Origin: a virus
Lineage: Duplodnaviria > Caudoviricetes
Strand: one strand, 5' to 3'
IMG/VR virus record: IMGVR_UViG_3300028361_000502
Location: 1-53,099 of that record
DNA length: 53,099 bases
Positions 26,822 through 40,191 of this stretch are shown here, piece by piece. Below the pieces are notes generated by a model. The model saw nothing but the letters and a program-made list of their open reading frames with translations, was not told the DNA's origin and searched no databases. Within the stretch, counting starts at the first letter, position 1; each line of letters begins with the position of its first letter. Both the position numbers and the translations under genes were made by a program.

Positions 26822-27034
26822 TTATCTGCGTTTAGTCAATCGTTTTGATTGTTTACTGGGCTTTTCAGCAACAATGTCGGTTAAAGTGTTGCGTTCCAGC
26901 AACGGTAACACTGCTGCTTCTGATTGACTGCGGTTCCATTTGAACTGCTTTTCTGCTTCTTTAAGCATGTCCTCTACGGCATCGTGTCTTGCTATAATGC
27001 CGTAGAGCATTCGATCTATTTCAATCCAATTCAC
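26822..27034 (-). CDS. Hypothetical protein
   Basis: GTG start overlapping the TGA of the upstream ORF. Confidence 0.6.
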   Translation of the reverse strand: MNWIEIDRMLYGIIARHDAVEDMLKEAEKQFKWNRSQSEAAVLPLLERNTLTDIVAEKPSKQSKRLTKRR

Positions 27035-27207
27035 TTTTTGGATTCTTTTTCCGCCTTGGTTAATTTGTTGTTCCAAGTGCTGTTGCTGATACCCAGTTCG
27101 CTGGGCATGGGCTTGGTTTTTCCTACAGTAACTTCGCCGCCTTTTTTGAGAAACTGCTGAATCAATTCTTCATCTGTGTTCTTTTTTGGTTGATGATTCA
27201 TTGCCAT
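27031..27207 (-). CDS. Small protein (58 aa, not in track) with an LIQQFLKKGGEV motif reminiscent of the SutA RNAP-binding segment
   Basis: MAMNHQPKKNTDEELIQQFLKKGGEVTVGK... Confidence 0.55.
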   Translation of the reverse strand: MAMNHQPKKNTDEELIQQFLKKGGEVTVGKTKPMPSELGISNSTWNNKLTKAEKESKK

Positions 27208-27318: not shown

Positions 27319-27929
27319 TATATATTCCTTTTCATTCCTTTGATTAAGGTATCTGCCATGCTGTGGTTAACATCTGCGTGGCCTTGCTCGTCTGCTCTCA
27401 CTGCTATTACAACATCACGCAATGTTGCGTCATCTGCTAGATTATAATAGTCACGAGCAATGTTGGGTGCAGCGATATTCTCTACTCTGCCAGCGTCAAT
27501 TTCTTCCAGATAGTGAGTATAACTTACCACTGCTTGATCTTCAAAGTAGCCTACCATTCTGTGTGCTGTGGTTGGGAAGAATACGTAAAGAATAAAATAA
27601 AAGTGCCAAAACACAAACTGTGCAAATAGAATCAACAGTCTTTCAAAGCGACTTGGCTTTGCGATCTCAACAAAGATCATAAGATGCATACGCTCGTTTT
27701 CTGCTTCTTCTAGCAGCGTTTTGATCCAGCCACGTTCGTCTGGTGCTATGTTGCGCAGGCTGCGTAGGTGCTGCCACATACCTGCTACCATGCCTGGAAC
27801 ACCTGCCACAGTCTCTAGAACAACTGCACGATGTCCATAGCGTTTGGCGAAGAATGTGTCCGCGAACCAACGAAAAGTCATTGTTAAAAAATAAGCAACT
27901 CTATCACTGAAGTCTTTGGGCTGTCTCAT
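27318..27929 (-). CDS. aox: Alternative oxidase (ubiquinol oxidase)
   Basis: LETVAGVPGMV, HLRSLR, EEAENERMHL, HRMVGYFE, VRADEQGH diiron motifs. Confidence 0.94.
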   Translation of the reverse strand: MRQPKDFSDRVAYFLTMTFRWFADTFFAKRYGHRAVVLETVAGVPGMVAGMWQHLRSLRNIAPDERGWIKTLLEEAENERMHLMIFVEIAKPSRFERLLILFAQFVFWHFYFILYVFFPTTAHRMVGYFEDQAVVSYTHYLEEIDAGRVENIAAPNIARDYYNLADDATLRDVVIAVRADEQGHADVNHSMADTLIKGMKRNI

Positions 27930-28288
27930 ACATGTTCACCGTTGTTTGCGCGGCCGTTGTACTTTGCGCCTGCTGTTACTAATTTGTTTACGGAAGTTGG
28001 GTTGCGATTTGCTTCACGGAATGTGATAGCAGTGATTGCAACTCCGCTGATCAGCAGTATGTGAAACACTGCACTGATGCCAAACGCAACAAAGCTGCCC
28101 AGCATAGCAGCAAAGAGGCCGCTCCATACAAATGCTAGACTTTGAAATACCATATGGGCCGCCATAGGGTCTAGATTCTTTAGTAGTGAGTTTTCGATAG
28201 TCATTACGCTATCCCACATCTCTCTAGGCATAGCAATTACAGTCTTCACTGTGGTAACTATGCCTACTGGCTTTGCTTTTCTGTTCAT
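27926..28288 (-). CDS. Membrane protein coupled to AOX
   Basis: Two TM helices, each with a His; ATGA overlap with aox. Confidence 0.7.
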   Translation of the reverse strand: MNRKAKPVGIVTTVKTVIAMPREMWDSVMTIENSLLKNLDPMAAHMVFQSLAFVWSGLFAAMLGSFVAFGISAVFHILLISGVAITAITFREANRNPTSVNKLVTAGAKYNGRANNGEHV

Positions 28289-28506
28289 TGTGTGTTCCTC
28301 TGTATGTTGTATGTATAATATATAGCATACAAATAGACCAAAGTCTACTTATATAGGTGCGTTAAAGTGTAGCAGATACTTACAGTTTCAGAGTGGTGCG
28401 TTTTGTATCCCACTATTTGTAACCCAATGTCCTAATCCTAGTTTAACGGGCACATTCTCTTACCCAGCTGATAAAACTATGTTAAACCTTTTTGCCGTCT
28501 GTAAGT

Positions 28507-28788
28507 GTAAGTTGATTCTGTTACTAGGTTCAACTTACAAAACCCTCACATACCCTTAGGCTGCTATTGCCATCTCTGGCGCTCTATTTGCGTTTGCATT
28601 TAGAATGTTTGACTGAATAACGTAGGTCAACACGAATACCTAAAAATAAGTTTTTAACGCCCGTCGATCCCTTTCGCCCCCGGAGTAAAACACACATTTA
28701 TATATGTGCTTTATGGTGGAGGCGTTGGCCTTCGAAAGCCAAGTCCGGTACATCAATCACCTATTCGTGATTAAACTATAAGACAGTA
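28507..28788 (-). ncRNA. ssrA: Circularly permuted (two-piece) tmRNA
   Basis: Acceptor piece ends CGCCTCCACCA (28714); 32-nt hairpin spacer; coding piece starts GGGGGCGAAAGGGATCGAC (28681) with G3-U70; tag frame 28597-28556 ANANRAPEMAIAA-stop; terminal CCTAGTAACAGAA hairpin. Confidence 0.92.
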
Positions 28789-29541
28789 TTATTTCCTATA
28801 GTATTCCATTCTACGACCTTTATACCAACCGTTTGGTATCTCGCCGCTCGTGTATTTATTTTCTTTTGTTGTTGGATTATAGATCCAAAAATTTCCATAA
28901 ACTCCAGACTTTCTCTTTAGCCTATCTCTTGCTTCTGTAATCCTTATCCATCCTTCTTGTATATTATATACGGAAAAAACTCGTTTGTCAAGATTGAATC
29001 TCGAAGTATCTGTAAGATTTTCTGGAACACACCAGCATTTGTCTTTCATACTATTATTTTCTTTTTGATATTTAGAAACTTTTTTGTATGATTCCTTATA
29101 GACATCAGGGTTGTCTCTAATCTTCCTTTCTTTAGATTCGTTAGCTTTTTTACTAAGATTTACAACTTCAGGGTCGCCCTTCTTAAATGAAGTTGATCGA
29201 AGTCCACCTCCTTTTTTAGCACCTTTTAATCTTGCTGCTTGGGCAGCAGGCGCCTTATTCCAAGTACTCCATCCTCCGTCGCCTTCTTCTATTTTAAGAT
29301 TAGCCCATTCGTTAGATTCGACAATATTAAAACGGTTGCTGTATTCTATGCCCTTTTCTTTAATAACATCTTTACTGTCTGTTATTATTAATATTTCTGT
29401 AGAGATATCAGCACCGTGTTTTTTAAGATGATTTGTCCATCGTGTACCACTGCCTTTATAAGTATATGGGTCAGCAGATGTCTGACCTAGGTATTTTAAT
29501 CCTGTTTGATTGTGTGTTTTTACATATAAATAATATGTCAT
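28789..29541 (-). CDS. Free-standing GIY-YIG-like homing endonuclease
   Basis: YYLYVKTHNQTGLKYLGQT, YKGSG, WANL..E.GDGG; AT-rich; AAGGAG RBS; own TAAATA promoter. Confidence 0.82.
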   Translation of the reverse strand: MTYYLYVKTHNQTGLKYLGQTSADPYTYKGSGTRWTNHLKKHGADISTEILIITDSKDVIKEKGIEYSNRFNIVESNEWANLKIEEGDGGWSTWNKAPAAQAARLKGAKKGGGLRSTSFKKGDPEVVNLSKKANESKERKIRDNPDVYKESYKKVSKYQKENNSMKDKCWCVPENLTDTSRFNLDKRVFSVYNIQEGWIRITEARDRLKRKSGVYGNFWIYNPTTKENKYTSGEIPNGWYKGRRMEYYRK

Positions 29542-29629
29542 TGCTGGAAATCTCCTTTAGTATTTTTAGAGTAGTTGGGACTGCCATCCGCGAACTACAT
29601 TATTATTTATCTAAAAGAGTTATTTTTGC

Positions 29630-29685
29630 CCGGTACCGCCCCCAGGTCCAGAATGTGTCCACGTTGTTTCAACGTTTACAAGTTT
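29630..29685 (-). pseudogene. Relic 5' part of a previous tmRNA acceptor piece
   Basis: AAACTTGTA...GGACCTGGGGGCGGTACC (alphaproteobacterial T-arm) with no acceptor stem or CCA; directly after a TTGACA/TATAAATA promoter (29685-29714). Confidence 0.7.
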
Positions 29686-29740
29686 ATTTATACACTCTTT
29701 TTATGATTTGTCAACTATTTCGATCTGCTCTGGTTTGTCC

Positions 29741-29920
29741 TCAGCCTAGATACCACGGATCTAAATTCAACTGTCGAGCAACTTCTGCCGCTTGTTCTAC
29801 ACTGTTACAGCTGGTGACCATATCACCTTTGCGGCCTCCTATGCGGATTCGCCACAGTGTCTTGCCCAGTGTGGTAACTTCTTCATATACTCGAAAGTCT
29901 GTTCGTGTTTTGGTAACCAT
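29741..29920 (-). CDS. Hypothetical protein (59 aa, not in track)
   Basis: MVTKTRTDFRVYEEVTTLGKTLWRIRIGG...; AGGA RBS. Confidence 0.6.
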   Translation of the reverse strand: MVTKTRTDFRVYEEVTTLGKTLWRIRIGGRKGDMVTSCNSVEQAAEVARQLNLDPWYLG

Positions 29921-29950
29921 TGTATTTTCCTACTCTATGGTTGGTTGATA

Positions 29951-30166
29951 TTATTCAAATCGTTCTACTACGCTGATAGAATGTTTACAACGACCGTGAA
30001 ATTGAAATCCAGTACAGTCGCAGGTAAAACCTTGTTCAGTAAGGGCAACTGTGTAGAAACTGTCCTTTTTGCTGCCAGCAACACTCCATTCAGTGCCTAG
30101 CAACAGATTGCCTTTGAAGTTCCAGTCTGTGGGTTTCAAGTAGCGTTTGGAGTATTTCTTAGACAC
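29951..30166 (-). CDS. SWIM zinc-finger protein
   Basis: FTCDC.GFQFHGRCKH; upstream promoter TTGACA-N16-TATATT (30203-30230). Confidence 0.8.
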   Translation of the reverse strand: MSKKYSKRYLKPTDWNFKGNLLLGTEWSVAGSKKDSFYTVALTEQGFTCDCTGFQFHGRCKHSISVVERFE

Positions 30167-30234
30167 AGTTGCCCTCGCTTGCTTCGTTCACATCGTGCTA
30201 TCAATATAACAGATGTTTAGAATTTGTCAAGCAA

Positions 30235-35681: not shown

Positions 35682-36233
35682 TTATATAGTGCAACTTTCA
35701 CATTCGCCGCCTGCATCCGCTGGGACAGCGGGCAATTCCTGTACGCTGTTATCAGATATCATTTTGTCTGTGTCCAACTCGCCTTGGCCATCGTTTGTTT
35801 GGAAATAATAAAGCTGTTTTCCGCCTAGCTTGTAGAACAACAGTAGGTGCTGTAGCATAGTGCTGAGAGGTATTTTCTCATCTTCGTAGTACTGTGGATT
35901 GTAACTGGTGTTTACACTGATGCCTTGATCAATGTATTTCTGCAACACTGCCACGATCTTTAAATAGCCTTCTGGGCTACGCTGATCCCACAGTAGATCA
36001 TATTTGTTCTTGAGCTTTTTAAACTCTGGCACTACCTGCTTGAGTACGCCATGCTTGCTCTGCTTGATTGAGATTAGACTGCGCGGTGGTTCAATACCGT
36101 TGGTAGCATTTGCAATTTGCGCACTAGTGTTATGACTAATGCATCCATTTGACAAGGTATAAGTTTCGTTGTCAGTTGAAACATCCCAAGTGTGTTCTGT
36201 TCCTGCGTCTCTTGTAATACGTTTAATTTTCAT
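35682..36233 (-). CDS. nrdA: NrdA fragment 3: split-intein C-half (35 aa) plus NrdA C-terminus
   Basis: TWDVSTDNETYTLSNGCISHN then TSAQIANATNGIEPPR...KQLYY...CESC; start moved to ATG 36233. Confidence 0.92.
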   Translation of the reverse strand: MKIKRITRDAGTEHTWDVSTDNETYTLSNGCISHNTSAQIANATNGIEPPRSLISIKQSKHGVLKQVVPEFKKLKNKYDLLWDQRSPEGYLKIVAVLQKYIDQGISVNTSYNPQYYEDEKIPLSTMLQHLLLFYKLGGKQLYYFQTNDGQGELDTDKMISDNSVQELPAVPADAGGECESCTI

Positions 36234-36487
36234 TTTAATAATTCCTCTTTTGTAATTGAACATTTTCCTTGTTTTGACACGTTATCTTCCCAGGGAATAA
36301 ATTCTAAATTTTGCAAGCTTCCTAATAGCGCAGGATCAATTCCTTCAATAAATCCTCGAGATATTGAGAATTTATGATCTAGATGATAGGCGTTGTTGAT
36401 ACCTGCTCGGCCTCTTTTTTCATAATTCACTAATAAATTTAGGTCATGTTGATTAGTATATTCCCAGTCATACGGGTTTGCTTTCAT
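36230..36487 (-). CDS. Truncated HNH-type endonuclease remnant between the intein halves
   Basis: YHLDHKFSI...NLEFIPWEDNVSK; only 85 aa; AT-rich. Confidence 0.65.
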   Translation of the reverse strand: MKANPYDWEYTNQHDLNLLVNYEKRGRAGINNAYHLDHKFSISRGFIEGIDPALLGSLQNLEFIPWEDNVSKQGKCSITKEELLK

Positions 36488-36504
36488 ATTATCTCCTGTT
36501 AGCG

Positions 36505-37461
36505 TTAATGCTTATAATTAACGCTAACAATATCGTCATCTTCTAATAAATCTTTAACTTCGATCCATTCTTTTATGTTATTTCGTAATACAAGAAGTTT
36601 GTGATTATTAGTAAATTTATATACCGATCCGTCTTCTAATTCAATTTCTGTAACAGATTGAGGGCCATTATAATAACATTCATATGCTATACTATCTGAC
36701 AATTCAACTGGTTTAAGGAATGGAAATCTCTGACCTATCATGAATTTTTCGTGAACAGTGTTAATATCAATTTTTCCGTAATCTTGAATAACTTCGGCGA
36801 GCGTTACAACTGTTCCATCTTTTAGCCTCATTTCATTTGCCAAGCTTTGACATTCACTAGGCATCAGTGCCATCAGTGTTGAGTTGCGGATGCCAGTTGT
36901 CTTAAGCTGTTCACGCAGACCTTGCCAATCCATGCGTTCTTGATGTGGTACTAGTTCGTCCAGTGCTGACGCATAGGTTTGATTAGGTGTGATGCCTAGG
37001 CCGTACTTGGTTTCAGGTGTTCCAGGGCAAGCACCAAATTCTACTGCAAGATCAGCACTGGCTTTGATCAAATAGTAACTCCAAGCTTCTGCCCATTCGT
37101 CAATCAGTGCTAGCCCTTGTGCGTCAATGTTTTGATAGCTGAGACTGTTCTTGGCCATCCAGTAAGCAAAATTGATAATGCCAATGCCCAAAGGTCTACG
37201 CTTTTCTGTACTAAGTTGGGCAGCTAGGATAGGATAGTTTTGATAGCTCAACAGTGCATCTAGTCCACGTACTGCTAAACGACATACACGCTCAAAGTCT
37301 GCTGGTGTACGAATGTTGCCCCAATTTATTGCTGACAAGGTACAAAGGCTGATAGCGGCGCCGTCGTAATCTTCTACCATTTCGTCTACATAGTAATATT
37401 CTTCGTCTTCGTGTATATCAATCTTGTCCTCAACAATTTCATATAGCCAATCATCTTTCAT
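36505..37461 (-). CDS. nrdA: NrdA fragment 2: acidic head, NrdA core, split-intein N-half (from Cys at 36852)
   Basis: ISLCTLSAINWG, RRPLGIGIINFAY, GIRNSTLMALMPSE then CQSLAN...FTNNHKL...WIEVKDL. Confidence 0.92.
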   Translation of the reverse strand: MKDDWLYEIVEDKIDIHEDEEYYYVDEMVEDYDGAAISLCTLSAINWGNIRTPADFERVCRLAVRGLDALLSYQNYPILAAQLSTEKRRPLGIGIINFAYWMAKNSLSYQNIDAQGLALIDEWAEAWSYYLIKASADLAVEFGACPGTPETKYGLGITPNQTYASALDELVPHQERMDWQGLREQLKTTGIRNSTLMALMPSECQSLANEMRLKDGTVVTLAEVIQDYGKIDINTVHEKFMIGQRFPFLKPVELSDSIAYECYYNGPQSVTEIELEDGSVYKFTNNHKLLVLRNNIKEWIEVKDLLEDDDIVSVNYKH

Positions 37462-38219
37462 TTTTTATATCCTTTTAATTTTCTAAGTTTGAACATTGAC
37501 AGTCCTGTTGCGTTTGATGCTTCTGTCATTGAACCGTATTCCACATTATCGACTACAATAGACTTTGAGAACGAATTATCGGAACCGTACATTGCTTTGC
37601 CGGGCTTGCCCTTGCTTTTCCATTCTTTACAATCATATTCTACATTTCGATTATTCGTTATTTTTTTGCACTTATAGCCTTTGTAATGCTGTTTATTTCC
37701 TCTTGCAACAGCACTCATTGCTGAAGGATTTAGATTATTTTCTTTACAATACTCTAGCATATTTTCTCGAACTATTGTTGTACCGTCAGGAGTTGTGATT
37801 TCCCACGTGTCAATTTTTAATTTATGTCTGTTATGATCGCCCCATAACTGCTTTCCTTTGTGAGGACTAGGTTTTCCTTTTTTTGCTTTAGATATCCTAT
37901 CATAATATATTTTAGCTAGCTCTGGATTATCGTGATGGCTCCAGCCTTTTCCAGAATAGTTATGCAGATTATAATACTCGCTACTATTTGCAGCATCAAC
38001 ATTGCATAAAATTTCTTGTTCTTTTGAAACTGCTTCCTCTCCAGTCATATTAGAATGTAAAATTTTTCTAGTATAATTATGAGGATTTTTATCATAAATC
38101 TCGTTAAAATAATTACTAGATGAAATATAGCCGTCACACATTGTTCCGTAATGCGACCCGATATATTTCATCTTGTCTATTTTTGATTCCCACATATAAA
38201 TAAAACCTTGCTTTTCCAT
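37458..38219 (-). CDS. GIY-YIG (Seg-like) homing endonuclease splitting nrdA
   Basis: GFIYMW...KYIGSH, YISSS, YYNL; C-terminal NUMOD/HTH repeats. Confidence 0.85.
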   Translation of the reverse strand: MEKQGFIYMWESKIDKMKYIGSHYGTMCDGYISSSNYFNEIYDKNPHNYTRKILHSNMTGEEAVSKEQEILCNVDAANSSEYYNLHNYSGKGWSHHDNPELAKIYYDRISKAKKGKPSPHKGKQLWGDHNRHKLKIDTWEITTPDGTTIVRENMLEYCKENNLNPSAMSAVARGNKQHYKGYKCKKITNNRNVEYDCKEWKSKGKPGKAMYGSDNSFSKSIVVDNVEYGSMTEASNATGLSMFKLRKLKGYKK

Positions 38220-38243
38220 AATATTATACCTTTCTGTATAATA

Positions 38244-39731
38244 TTATTTATCCTTATGTACTTTTTTGCCGTTAAGTTTTTCTTTATCAAGTCTAAGGAT
38301 ATTGCTAACTGATTTTTTATATTCTAAGTATTCCTGATACTTTTCTTTTGGTACACGAACTTTTCTCCTATGGGCTCCGTCGTTTAGATCGTTCAACGGC
38401 TTGGTAGGCAGGTCAATTTCTGCGCAAAGATTTGATTGTCTAATAGGAGCAATTGACGGAATAAAGCTGCCGTGACTGTTGGCATTGTCTACATTCTGTA
38501 GATAGATACGACCTGTGTTCTTGCGCTCTTCCATAAAGCTGCTGAACAAGTCAATAGCTTTAATAGTCTTTTTGCGCAGTTTGGTGTTGCGTTCAGCAGT
38601 TTCATACAGTTCACGGAACAGATCTTGATCCGCAAAGAAAGCATCATACAGCCCAGGAACATCTGCAGGGGAAAACAGTGTGATGTCAGCGCCCTGTATC
38701 AGTCTTTCATAAAACAGTTTGTTAAACTGTACGCCATAATCCATATGACGCACTCGATTTTCTTCTGTGCCTTTGTTGTTCTTCAGCACCAACATATCTT
38801 CTATCTCATAGTGCCATATAGGGTAGTAGATAGTGGCTGCACCGCCTCTTACTCCGCCTTGACTACAGCTTTTAACAGCTGATTGAAAGTGCTTGTAGAA
38901 AGGAATAATACCTGTATGGTAAGCATCACCTTTGCGTATAGGTGATCCGATAGCACGGATGTTGCCGCCGCCTATGCCAATGCCTGCTTTCTGACTAACA
39001 TATTTGACAATACTAGCGGCTGTGGCATTGATGCTGTCTAGGCTATCACCTGTTTCAATTAAAACACAACTTGAGAACTGACGCTGTGGTGTACGAACAC
39101 CTGCCATAACCGGTGTAGGCAAGCTGATGTCATGCTGGCTGACAGCATCGTAGTAGTCCTTGACCCAGGTTAGCCTTGACTCTTTGGGATAGTTGTGAAA
39201 CAGTGTGGCAGCGATCAGTATATAGCATACCTGCGGAGTTTCAAAGATTTCACCACTGACCCTGTTCTGTACTAGATACTTGCCGCGCAGTTGCTCCATG
39301 GCCACATAGGTTAAACTTTCATCACGCTCATGTTTTACAAAACTGTTGATGCGATCCCACTCTTCGTCTGTGTAGTATGAGATCAATTCTGGATCATAAA
39401 ATCCTAGATCAGTATTGCGTTTAACTAGGTCTTTGACAGCACAAGGTTCAAACTGTCCGTATACTTCTTTGCGCAGGGCATAGTTGATCATTCTCCCGCC
39501 TACATATTGATAGTTGGGATTTTCTTCTGAGATAAGATCCGCCGCAGCTTTGATCAGTGTTTCTTGAATCTCTTTGGTAGTAATACCGTTGTAAAACTGT
39601 ATCTGACTCTTGATTTCCACTTCGCTTGGGCTAACTCCAGTTATGTCATCACAGGCATAAAAAACAACCTTGTGTAATTTTTCAATATCTAGAGGCTCTT
39701 TGCGCCCTGCTCGCTTGGTGACTTGAATCAT
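38244..39731 (-). CDS. nrdA: NrdA fragment 1: ATP cone through the catalytic NLCAE, plus a basic tail
   Basis: MIQVTKR ATP cone, TPVMAGVRT, FSSCVLIE, GGVRGG, RQSNLCAEI; start moved to 39731. Confidence 0.95.
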   Translation of the reverse strand: MIQVTKRAGRKEPLDIEKLHKVVFYACDDITGVSPSEVEIKSQIQFYNGITTKEIQETLIKAAADLISEENPNYQYVGGRMINYALRKEVYGQFEPCAVKDLVKRNTDLGFYDPELISYYTDEEWDRINSFVKHERDESLTYVAMEQLRGKYLVQNRVSGEIFETPQVCYILIAATLFHNYPKESRLTWVKDYYDAVSQHDISLPTPVMAGVRTPQRQFSSCVLIETGDSLDSINATAASIVKYVSQKAGIGIGGGNIRAIGSPIRKGDAYHTGIIPFYKHFQSAVKSCSQGGVRGGAATIYYPIWHYEIEDMLVLKNNKGTEENRVRHMDYGVQFNKLFYERLIQGADITLFSPADVPGLYDAFFADQDLFRELYETAERNTKLRKKTIKAIDLFSSFMEERKNTGRIYLQNVDNANSHGSFIPSIAPIRQSNLCAEIDLPTKPLNDLNDGAHRRKVRVPKEKYQEYLEYKKSVSNILRLDKEKLNGKKVHKDK

Positions 39732-39765
39732 TTTTATTTCCTTGTTCTGTTGTGTGATCTGATAT

Positions 39766-40191
39766 TTATTGGAGTGATGGCATGAGGTACTGGTATTCAG
39801 AAACGGTGGTGGTGGGAACTTGGCTTCTGTGAACATGCGTATCTCCGGCTGGGCTGACAACCCTATCATCAATGAACAGTAAGTATTCTACAGATGATCT
39901 TTGTTTGTCGTGTGTAATATGTATCTCGAATCTGGCAGGAGTAAAACGGTCAGTTAATTGTAAGGTGTAGCAGATCGCAAGGATCTTCACGAACACACAA
40001 TAATTATTTTCCTTGATTATTTCCCACGGTGCAGGCCAGGTACTTTGAGTGTAAGGGTCAGCAGCAATGCTGACCTCTGGGGCACGATTGAATAGGTCAA
40101 TTGTGTCCTGTATAGGGTCTTCAGCCGTCTCTAGTGCAGATCTGAAAGATCTCCAGAGTGCTAGACGTTGCTCATATGTTTTATCGAACAT
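39766..40191 (-). CDS. Hypothetical phage protein
   Basis: 141 aa; WPAPWEII..NNYC motif. Confidence 0.7.
   Translation of the reverse strand: MFDKTYEQRLALWRSFRSALETAEDPIQDTIDLFNRAPEVSIAADPYTQSTWPAPWEIIKENNYCVFVKILAICYTLQLTDRFTPARFEIHITHDKQRSSVEYLLFIDDRVVSPAGDTHVHRSQVPTTTVSEYQYLMPSLQ

Follow-up and report, generated by a model that had tools for sequence, protein, structure and literature searches.

The window analysed here is the whole of an IMG/VR virus record (IMGVR_UViG_3300028361_000502; 53,099 bases), whose genes include those for ribonucleotide reductase, alternative oxidase, a DNA methylase and an exonuclease. On the minus strand, from 29714 to 28465, it carries in succession a promoter, a truncated piece of a transfer-messenger RNA (tmRNA) gene that we call the relic, an open reading frame (ORF) for a predicted homing endonuclease and a complete permuted tmRNA gene. 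Every element that the original prediction had named from the sequence alone lies where it had been placed on this strand, including a perfect 8-base-pair (bp) match between CACGAATA and TATTCGTG. The layout occurs in 10 viral contigs, and the DNA sequencing runs that bear the locus are lake and salt-lake metagenomes. All sampled words of the locus are present in Logan contigs of 19 of the 23 runs listed, none of them an RNA run, and single contigs span the relic, the ORF and the acceptor piece (for example, 28358–30231). The viral contigs and the bridging Logan contigs together rule out an assembly artefact as the source of the layout, and the sequence comparisons described below support the finding at this locus well.

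The downstream gene is recognized as a permuted tmRNA by ARAGORN (28465–28809, tag ANANRAPEMAIAA) and by Rfam, in which it matches RF04321 tmRNA_permuted with 92.3 bits (threshold 47) and RF01849 alpha_tmRNA with 82.2 bits (threshold 50). It begins 19 nucleotides (nt) 3′ of the endonuclease stop codon, and its acceptor piece precedes its coding piece. The acceptor piece comprises a P2 strand, CACGAATA (28769–28762), that is the perfect 8-bp complement of TATTCGTG in the coding piece (28638–28631), then GGAC (28746–28743), a T-arm TTGGC-TTTCGAAG-GCCAA (28742–28725) and the acceptor 3′ strand with CCA (28724–28714), such that the arm from 28746 to 28714 reads GGAC TTGGC TTTCGAAG GCCAA CGCCTCCACCA. 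In the coding piece, the acceptor 5′ strand GGGGGCG (28681–28675) pairs with CGCCUCC, which is followed by ACCA; the G3·U70 pair is kept, and the tag encoded by the ORF at 28597–28556 ends in alanines. Minimum-free-energy cofolding missed the textbook tmRNA fold, and the acceptor stem, duplex energies and the Rfam alignment were used instead. The 5′ part of the new acceptor piece forms a duplex of −20.3 kcal/mol with the coding piece, compared with −13.1 kcal/mol for the relic, which bears out the claim that the new piece pairs with the coding piece and the relic only poorly.

The relic and the downstream gene represent two types of tmRNA. Class A is defined by the T-loop GGCRGUA and the D-loop analogue GAAAUAGGAUCGAC, and class B, the type of the downstream gene, has a different T-loop, D-loop analogue and P2 strands. 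A class-A arm such as that of locus L029 (compared loci carry L numbers) reads GGAC TTGGG GGCAGTA CCCAA CGCCTCCACCA, from which the window's arm differs in the loop and closing pair alone. The window's T-loop, UUUCGAAG, has 8 nt against the standard 7 and is aligned by Rfam with one inserted U, and its D-loop analogue is GAAAGGGATCGAC rather than GAAAUAGGAUCGAC. Both P2 strands also differ from those of the relic's lineage. As had been proposed, the tRNA-like domain differs in type from that of the relic's lineage in both of its strands, and so does the P2 helix downstream.

In its exact form, the T-arm that the window shares with L005 is confined to endonuclease-bearing contigs (10 of 10). 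Looser class-B arms are found in permuted tmRNAs of phages that have no endonuclease gene (L183, L175, L169 and L186; 72–100 bits), in which UUUCGAUA and UCUCGGAU are T-loops like that of the window. Because endonuclease-free phages have such arms, the class-B arm is a natural allele type and not the element's invention, and the suggestion that the element had ‘recoded’ the T-arm has to be given up. The element probably carries the natural allele of the lineage in which it was first seated, with a variant T-loop that was borrowed, not newly made. Other tmRNA-like elements that we considered (L166–L168, L170, L171, L178, L179, L182, L185, L187 and L188) are unrelated to the layout; L166, L167, L168 and L179 are one-piece tmRNAs according to ARAGORN or Rfam.

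Upstream of the ORF, the relic comprises an 18-mer, GGACCTGGGGGCGGTACC (29649–29632), and extends through the 3′ strand of the T-stem as GGACCTGGGGGCGGTACCGGGC (29649–29628). With up to two mismatches allowed, the 18-mer (GGACYTGGGGGCRGTACC) has a single match in the window and none in 100 shuffles. A scan of viral contigs with it returned at least 119 stretches, and in 116 of the 119 listed it continues into CAGCGNCTCCACCA or a similar sequence, that is, the T-stem 3′ strand, the acceptor 3′ strand and CCA, ending in CCACCA. The exceptions among those listed are L095, a close relative of the window, L106, in which the locus ends at this point, and L086, a chance match inside coding DNA that we rejected as a tmRNA arm. 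None of the 116 intact class-A loci listed contains the endonuclease gene, and their spacers of at most 229 nt leave no room for one: the coding piece follows after 5–150 nt in 87 and after 152–229 nt in 21, as located by a crude pattern that missed it in 8 loci, five of them with no more than 60 nt. All 18 class-A loci submitted to Rfam are confirmed as permuted tmRNAs (76–126 bits). Among the 120 bacterial matches listed (L195–L314), the 18-mer is the T-arm of a chromosomal ssrA acceptor piece in 73, mostly from Alphaproteobacteria.

The sequence preceding the relic T-arm also matches that of working genes. In endonuclease-free class-A loci, a sigma-70-type promoter and a leader of about 35 nt precede the GGAC and T-arm of the acceptor piece, as they do in the upstream part of the window, whose TTGACA-16-TATAAA promoter is kept in 10 of 10 close relatives. 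The relic leader and arm are identical to those of the endonuclease-free L034 at 51 of 52 nt, and the 40 nt before the relic GGAC are 93% identical to L034 and 90% identical to L124. After the arm, the window has CAAAAATAACTC where class A has the acceptor strand. The break falls after the 3′ strand of the T-stem, which reads CCGGG against CCCAG in intact alleles, and the two substitutions break a pair; left-arm BLAST alignments end at 29632 in 35 of 35 cases. By these sequence criteria the relic is truly what remains of an ordinary alpha-type acceptor piece after truncation. The original prediction was right on this point, although its placement of the cut directly after the T-loop was not.

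Among class-A loci, intervening segments of 186–229 nt are present in L026, L027, L049, L051, L058, L076, L102, L108 and L111. These long segments hold ORFs of 52–66 amino acids (aa) that begin directly after CCA, and the Rfam matches for L026, L027, L051 and L058 are correspondingly long. The start of the small ORF of L051 resembles, by eye, that of a 58-aa ORF of the window (27031–27207).

Table 1. Features of the tmRNA locus in the window, in order of transcription, with the two tracts defined by comparison
Feature	Positions	Strand	Remarks
Sigma-70-type promoter of the original tmRNA gene	29687–29714	−	TTGACA (29714–29709), 16 nt, TATAAA (29692–29687)
Ancestral acceptor-piece leader (5′ P2 strands), belonging to the relic	29650–29686	−	
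Relic T-arm	29628–29649	−	GGAC, stem CCTGG/CCGGG and loop; without acceptor 3′ strand, without CCA
5′ untranslated part of the endonuclease cassette	29542–29627	−	Junction CAAAAATAACTC, ATAAATA, hairpin, AAGGAG
Predicted free-standing Seg-like GIY-YIG homing endonuclease gene	28789–29541	−	ORF, 250 aa
New acceptor piece	28714–28788	−	Rfam alignment; fold z = −2.2
Intervening segment separating the two tmRNA pieces	28682–28713	−	32 nt
Coding piece of the tmRNA	28465–28681	−	Acceptor 5′ strand, D-loop analogue, P2 strand, tag ORF
Mapped conversion tract	28606–29627	−	Distinct in sequence from this lineage's endonuclease-free class-A allele
Zero-difference block among close relatives with diverged flanks	28440–29734	−	1,295 nt

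The ORF between relic and tmRNA yields only noise in a phmmer search against sequences of the PDB, and its nature emerges from structure and relatives. Residues 1–90 of an AlphaFold model of the 250-aa protein (pLDDT 87.5) match the catalytic domain of I-TevI (1mk0/1ln0) with a probability of 1.0, a TM-score of 0.69 and a root-mean-square deviation of 2.6, and 159 viral structures (BFVD) match at E ≤ 0.001, with Seg-like or GIY-YIG names at the head of the list. NUMOD3 is carried by 17 of 56 aligned relatives, and the L005 counterpart matches PF19835 SegE_GIY-YIG. Because of this fold match and these relatives, the ORF is predicted to be a free-standing Seg-like GIY-YIG homing endonuclease gene, which supports the original assignment. 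In the alignment of relatives, used here in place of a superposition on catalytic residues, Y17, N81 and E85 are invariant, Y6 is nearly so and R34 is in the consensus. The model continues with a low-confidence linker (residues 91–117) and a second folded domain (124–250) in which the window and L005 have 65% identity, against only a distant likeness of their N-terminal domains.

Across the family, one C-terminal domain is combined with two types of GIY-YIG N-terminal domain (L005 2109–2861, L192 1090–1866, window 28789–29541 and L193 892–1677). L005 and L192 have a classical ‘YKITN..YIG’ type, and the window, L193 and L164 have a ‘YLYVKTH..KYLG’ type. This distribution points to domain swapping in the endonuclease family.

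The A-rich 5′ part of the cassette contains ATAAATA (29610–29604), a GTAGTT/AACTAC hairpin (29598–29571) and AAGGAG (29557–29552). The hairpin, at −12.2 kcal/mol and z = −1.2, does not reach significance on its own. Within the 3′ portion of the ORF lies a perfect consensus promoter (28963–28991, minus strand; TTGACA, 17 nt, TATAAT; 12 of 12 matches) that faces the tmRNA. Of 10 close relatives all 10 have it; by eye, L005 and L164 do not. It may restore independent transcription of the tmRNA in the window's lineage.

Searches with the C-terminal domain returned 11 viral and 6 metagenome loci, partly on the same contigs, all of them directly upstream of a tmRNA. These carriers constitute five lineages: the window type (9 contigs, 95.6–99.7% identical), L005, L164/L194, L192 and L193. 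Every one of them has the promoter, a class-A relic ending at the T-stem, ATAAATA, the endonuclease gene and an immediately following class-B tmRNA, and the junction and ATAAATA are common to all five (window, L164, L005, L192 and L193). Intact ORFs of 250–261 aa are kept in four lineages. In L164 (2131–2741; the same in L194) the endonuclease gene has decayed through loss of the start, a frameshift and an internal deletion, and is flanked by the relic and an intact class-B tmRNA; judged by its sequence, this is the usual fate of a fixed homing gene. The relic itself is partly deleted in L192. Over the carrier lineages the acceptor stems covary (CGCCUCC/GGGGGCG, CACCUCC/GGGGGUG and CAUCUCC/GGGGAUG), with covariation seen in L192 and L193, and keep G3·U70 throughout, which indicates that the downstream tmRNAs are under selection.

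Several observations are consistent with movement of the endonuclease gene. L034 and L124 have no endonuclease gene at otherwise homologous loci, and in L034, which is syntenic, the tmRNA is followed by the alternative oxidase gene; the locus is thus polymorphic for the presence of the gene. Over 40 nt, the relic leaders each match a separate endonuclease-free lineage, with identities of 93% (window), 85% (L005) and 93% (L164). Compared with one another these relic leaders are only 72% identical. The window and L164 share 82% identity in their new acceptor leaders.

Alignment with endonuclease-free loci, which the original prediction had suggested, maps a conversion tract of about 1 kb. The window tmRNA is a mosaic: its P2 region resembles class-B L164 (25 of 33 positions) and not class-A L124 (14 of 29), and its tag region is closer to the endonuclease-free L124 (40 of 42 positions) than to L164 (32 of 42). 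L124 aligns at 29692–29632 (93%) and 28605–28516 (89%), with nothing in between, and contigs from three of the four DNA runs examined join 28613 to 29627 or 28634 to 29632. From the chimaeric gene, the alignment gap and these joints, we place the replaced tract from 29627 to roughly 28606–28613, a length of about 1.02 kb.

A recently shared block covers the same region. Between 28440 and 29734, the six loci L019–L024 show no mismatches to the window in the tmRNA (0/324), the ORF (0/753) or the leader and relic (0/143), and the block is bounded at 28439 and 29735. The flanks of the same relatives have diverged by 3–15% (24/164, 15–28/371, 18–19/578, and 6/81 to 27/209). In L159, L160 and L161, the ORF differs at 1, 0 and 4 of 753 positions. 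A further mosaic is found in the endonuclease-free L183 (1924–2215), a class-A gene whose leader (96%) and P2 region (92%) are like those of L061 but whose core is class B: a patch of 63 nt, from the T-arm through the acceptor strand and spacer to the D-loop analogue, has 92% identity to L164. This looks like a break that was repaired from a class-B template with no gain of the endonuclease gene.

We consider it probable (roughly 0.75) that a Seg-like GIY-YIG homing gene invaded the permuted alpha-type tmRNA gene of a T4-like lake phage and replaced its tRNA-like domain. Under this model, a break where the T-stem meets the acceptor 3′ strand would have split the resident class-A gene, leaving its promoter, leader and T-arm as a non-functional stump. 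From the break to about 28606, donor DNA would have supplied the endonuclease gene, a whole class-B acceptor piece, the intervening segment, the acceptor 5′ strand, the D-loop analogue and the matching P2 strand, while the tag-coding part and the 3′ end stayed resident. The enzyme is presumed to bind class-A DNA at a site spanning T-arm and acceptor strand, and to cut near the boundary of the two; the carrier genome would escape cleavage because its stump has no acceptor half and its class-B arm no class-A loop. In a mixed infection, a cut class-A allele could be repaired from the carrier, copying the cassette, with left-hand homology provided by the stump and leader and right-hand homology by the conserved resume and tag region. 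The first such insertion probably came about when a cut class-A end was illegitimately joined to DNA upstream of an endonuclease gene that adjoined a class-B tmRNA. The endonuclease gene would be transcribed from the ATAAATA late-type promoter or the old tmRNA promoter, and the tmRNA of the window's lineage from the consensus promoter inside the ORF.

Some observations weigh against this model or parts of it. Neither Pfam nor PHROGs gives a match to the window ORF, even at E ≤ 10, and the putative catalytic residues are assigned from alignment, with no superposition. The presumed target site and the presumed immunity of the class-B arm are deduced from the end point of the stump, and the T-arm difference could be incidental, since class-B loops occur where there is no endonuclease. 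Being nearly intact as a hairpin and 51/52 like working alleles, the stump fits a recent event and would also fit some function of its own. The contig joints across the tract have short sides (30–38 nt) with 85% likeness, and the zero-difference block could stem in part from ordinary recombination. Moreover, two N-terminal nuclease domains distributed over five lineages imply a history more complex than that of a single spreading element.

The difference between the T-loops could also have arisen if a homing enzyme is at work with its target elsewhere in or beside the tmRNA gene, the class-B loop being donor DNA carried along with the flank. We regard this as rather unlikely, and as clearly less probable than cleavage at the T-arm border. 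Free-standing T4 endonucleases often cut at some distance from their own genes, flank co-conversion is seen at this locus and class-B T-loops are known in endonuclease-free phages. However, the stump ends at the same structural point, after the T-stem, in all five lineages, the L183 patch is centred on the core from T-arm to D-loop, the exact window-type T-arm is accompanied by the endonuclease gene in 10 of 10 cases and, in the available part of its description, SegB provides a precedent for T-arm recognition (PMC2330249). A model in which ordinary illegitimate recombination or a partial tmRNA duplication created the layout, with an endonuclease gene that is a passenger or inactive and does not drive spread, would accommodate the mosaic nature of phage genomes and the persistence of the layout around the decayed L164 copy. 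It appears improbable, given that the same junction, beside the same C-terminal domain, recurs in five lineages whose genome contexts differ, that their relics come from different lineages, that four of them keep intact ORFs of 250–261 aa and that the ORF shows 0/753 differences in L019–L024 and 0–4 in three other loci against flanks diverged by 3–15%.

Least probable, and in our judgement very unlikely, is a self-splicing intron that holds the endonuclease gene, the stump being exon 1 and being joined to CGCCUCCACCA. Such a join would make a class-A-like arm, and group I introns, few of them with endonuclease genes, are known in the tmRNA T-loop from the available text of a survey (PMC11915505). 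Yet a search of 28400–29800 on both strands gave no group I or other intron match at E ≤ 10; the stump leader is left unpaired with this coding piece, with which the downstream piece forms the perfect 8-bp helix; one pair of the stump T-stem is lost through its two substitutions; the acceptor stem downstream shows covariation between lineages; and an A precedes CGCC, where by the rule in that text group I introns end in G (PMC11915505). The absence of an intron match, the poor pairing of the old leader and the covarying acceptor stem make splicing unlikely. An integrase-borne island was rejected as well: the stump is separated from the gene by the 250-aa endonuclease ORF and no other, and the fragment left behind is the 5′ one, not the 3′ one.

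A BLAST search with 28300–30200 against the ‘phages’ collection returned no match, and a scan with an 84-aa neighbour protein returned close relatives only. In one close relative, L016, the alternative oxidase gene and a 120-aa ORF downstream of the tmRNA (27349–28435 in the window) are replaced by about 1 kb of other DNA. Elsewhere in the window, the gene for the large subunit of ribonucleotide reductase (35682–39872, minus strand) is in pieces (38244–39872, 36505–37461 and 35682–36263). The first two are separated by an HNH-type homing endonuclease ORF (37458–38219, phrog_314), a second homing element of this phage, and an unassigned 240-nt gap precedes the last.

By analogy, T4 SegB is the nearest functional parallel to the invading homing gene and the closest known system; a paper of 2026 reportedly deals with SegB-driven amplification. 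In the available part of its description, SegB is a free-standing GIY-YIG homing endonuclease in a tRNA gene cluster that cuts at the 3′ ends of tRNA genes within a 27-bp site, of which the conserved 11 bp are the T-stem-loop motif, and that is co-inherited with neighbouring RNA genes while recipient markers are lost (PMC2330249). Intron-less homing in an RNA gene, which the original prediction had put forward for this locus, is in line with the clear signs of mobility and the lack of an intron signal found here, but the principle is already known from this system. As far as that account extends, both are free-standing GIY-YIG enzymes of T4-like phages among genes for tRNA-like RNAs. Unlike SegB, the window element sits in a tmRNA gene that is permuted and in two pieces, has a presumed target T-loop GGCRGUA rather than GGTTCRANTCC, leaves a stump and brings a whole replacement tRNA-like domain, and is known from sequence alone. 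The likeness drawn here is one of function rather than of demonstrated kinship between the C-terminal domains.

Belle et al. in 2002 and Liu et al. in 2003 are said to have described intron-less homing and marker exclusion by T4 SegF and SegG. These systems share with the window an endonuclease gene beside its target gene, carrier alleles that differ at the site and co-conversion of flanking markers; they differ in targeting protein genes and in having carrier alleles with point changes, where the window has a stump and a full replacement. A genomic-island study has reportedly found that islands in tmRNA genes restore the split gene and leave a displaced fragment. Such islands use a tyrosine integrase and displace the 3′ fragment, whereas the window has a 250-aa endonuclease ORF only and a 5′ fragment left behind.

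Two further systems concern tmRNA itself. In the available text of the survey, 36 of 883 group I introns in the tmRNA T-loop have LAGLIDADG endonuclease genes (PMC11915505). Going by that text, they resemble the window element in being mobile elements aimed at the T-arm region of tmRNA, but they splice, lie in one-piece bacterial genes and use LAGLIDADG enzymes, whereas the window combines a GIY-YIG enzyme with a permuted phage gene in which no intron was detected. Two-piece alpha-type ssrA genes occur in marine T4-like phages, namely Melnitz and pelagimyophages (PMC9004378, in the part available). These likewise are phage-borne permuted tmRNAs with an early-type promoter, and the 116 listed endonuclease-free loci are of this kind; no endonuclease gene or stump is described in the available part of that report (PMC9004378). 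Our literature search, supplementary material aside, found no earlier description of a tmRNA gene that houses a free-standing endonuclease gene.

If the homing interpretation is correct, intron-less homing would extend from protein and tRNA genes to tmRNA, and a selfish gene could enter an essential structured-RNA gene with no intron by supplying a replacement for the part that it destroys. This strategy would be possible because the permuted gene places the T-arm and acceptor half beside the promoter. The natural pairs of putatively ‘cut’ and ‘uncut’ T-arm alleles would be useful for defining the specificity of a new Seg-like enzyme, and the locus offers a natural experiment on which combinations of T-loop and D-loop a tmRNA tolerates. 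Annotators who meet an additional, truncated tmRNA-like fragment ahead of a phage ssrA gene may be looking at the scar of a homing event. More speculatively, and with considerable doubt, the endonuclease family could act as a gene drive on the alphaproteobacterial tmRNA T-arm that has shaped phage tmRNAs, and it may also cut host ssrA, because the class-A T-arm is present in alphaproteobacterial chromosomal ssrA genes (73 of the 120 matches listed). In that case, the drive would have spread the class-B tRNA-like core and produced resistant mosaics such as L183, and the phage would disable trans-translation by its host while providing an uncuttable tmRNA of its own.

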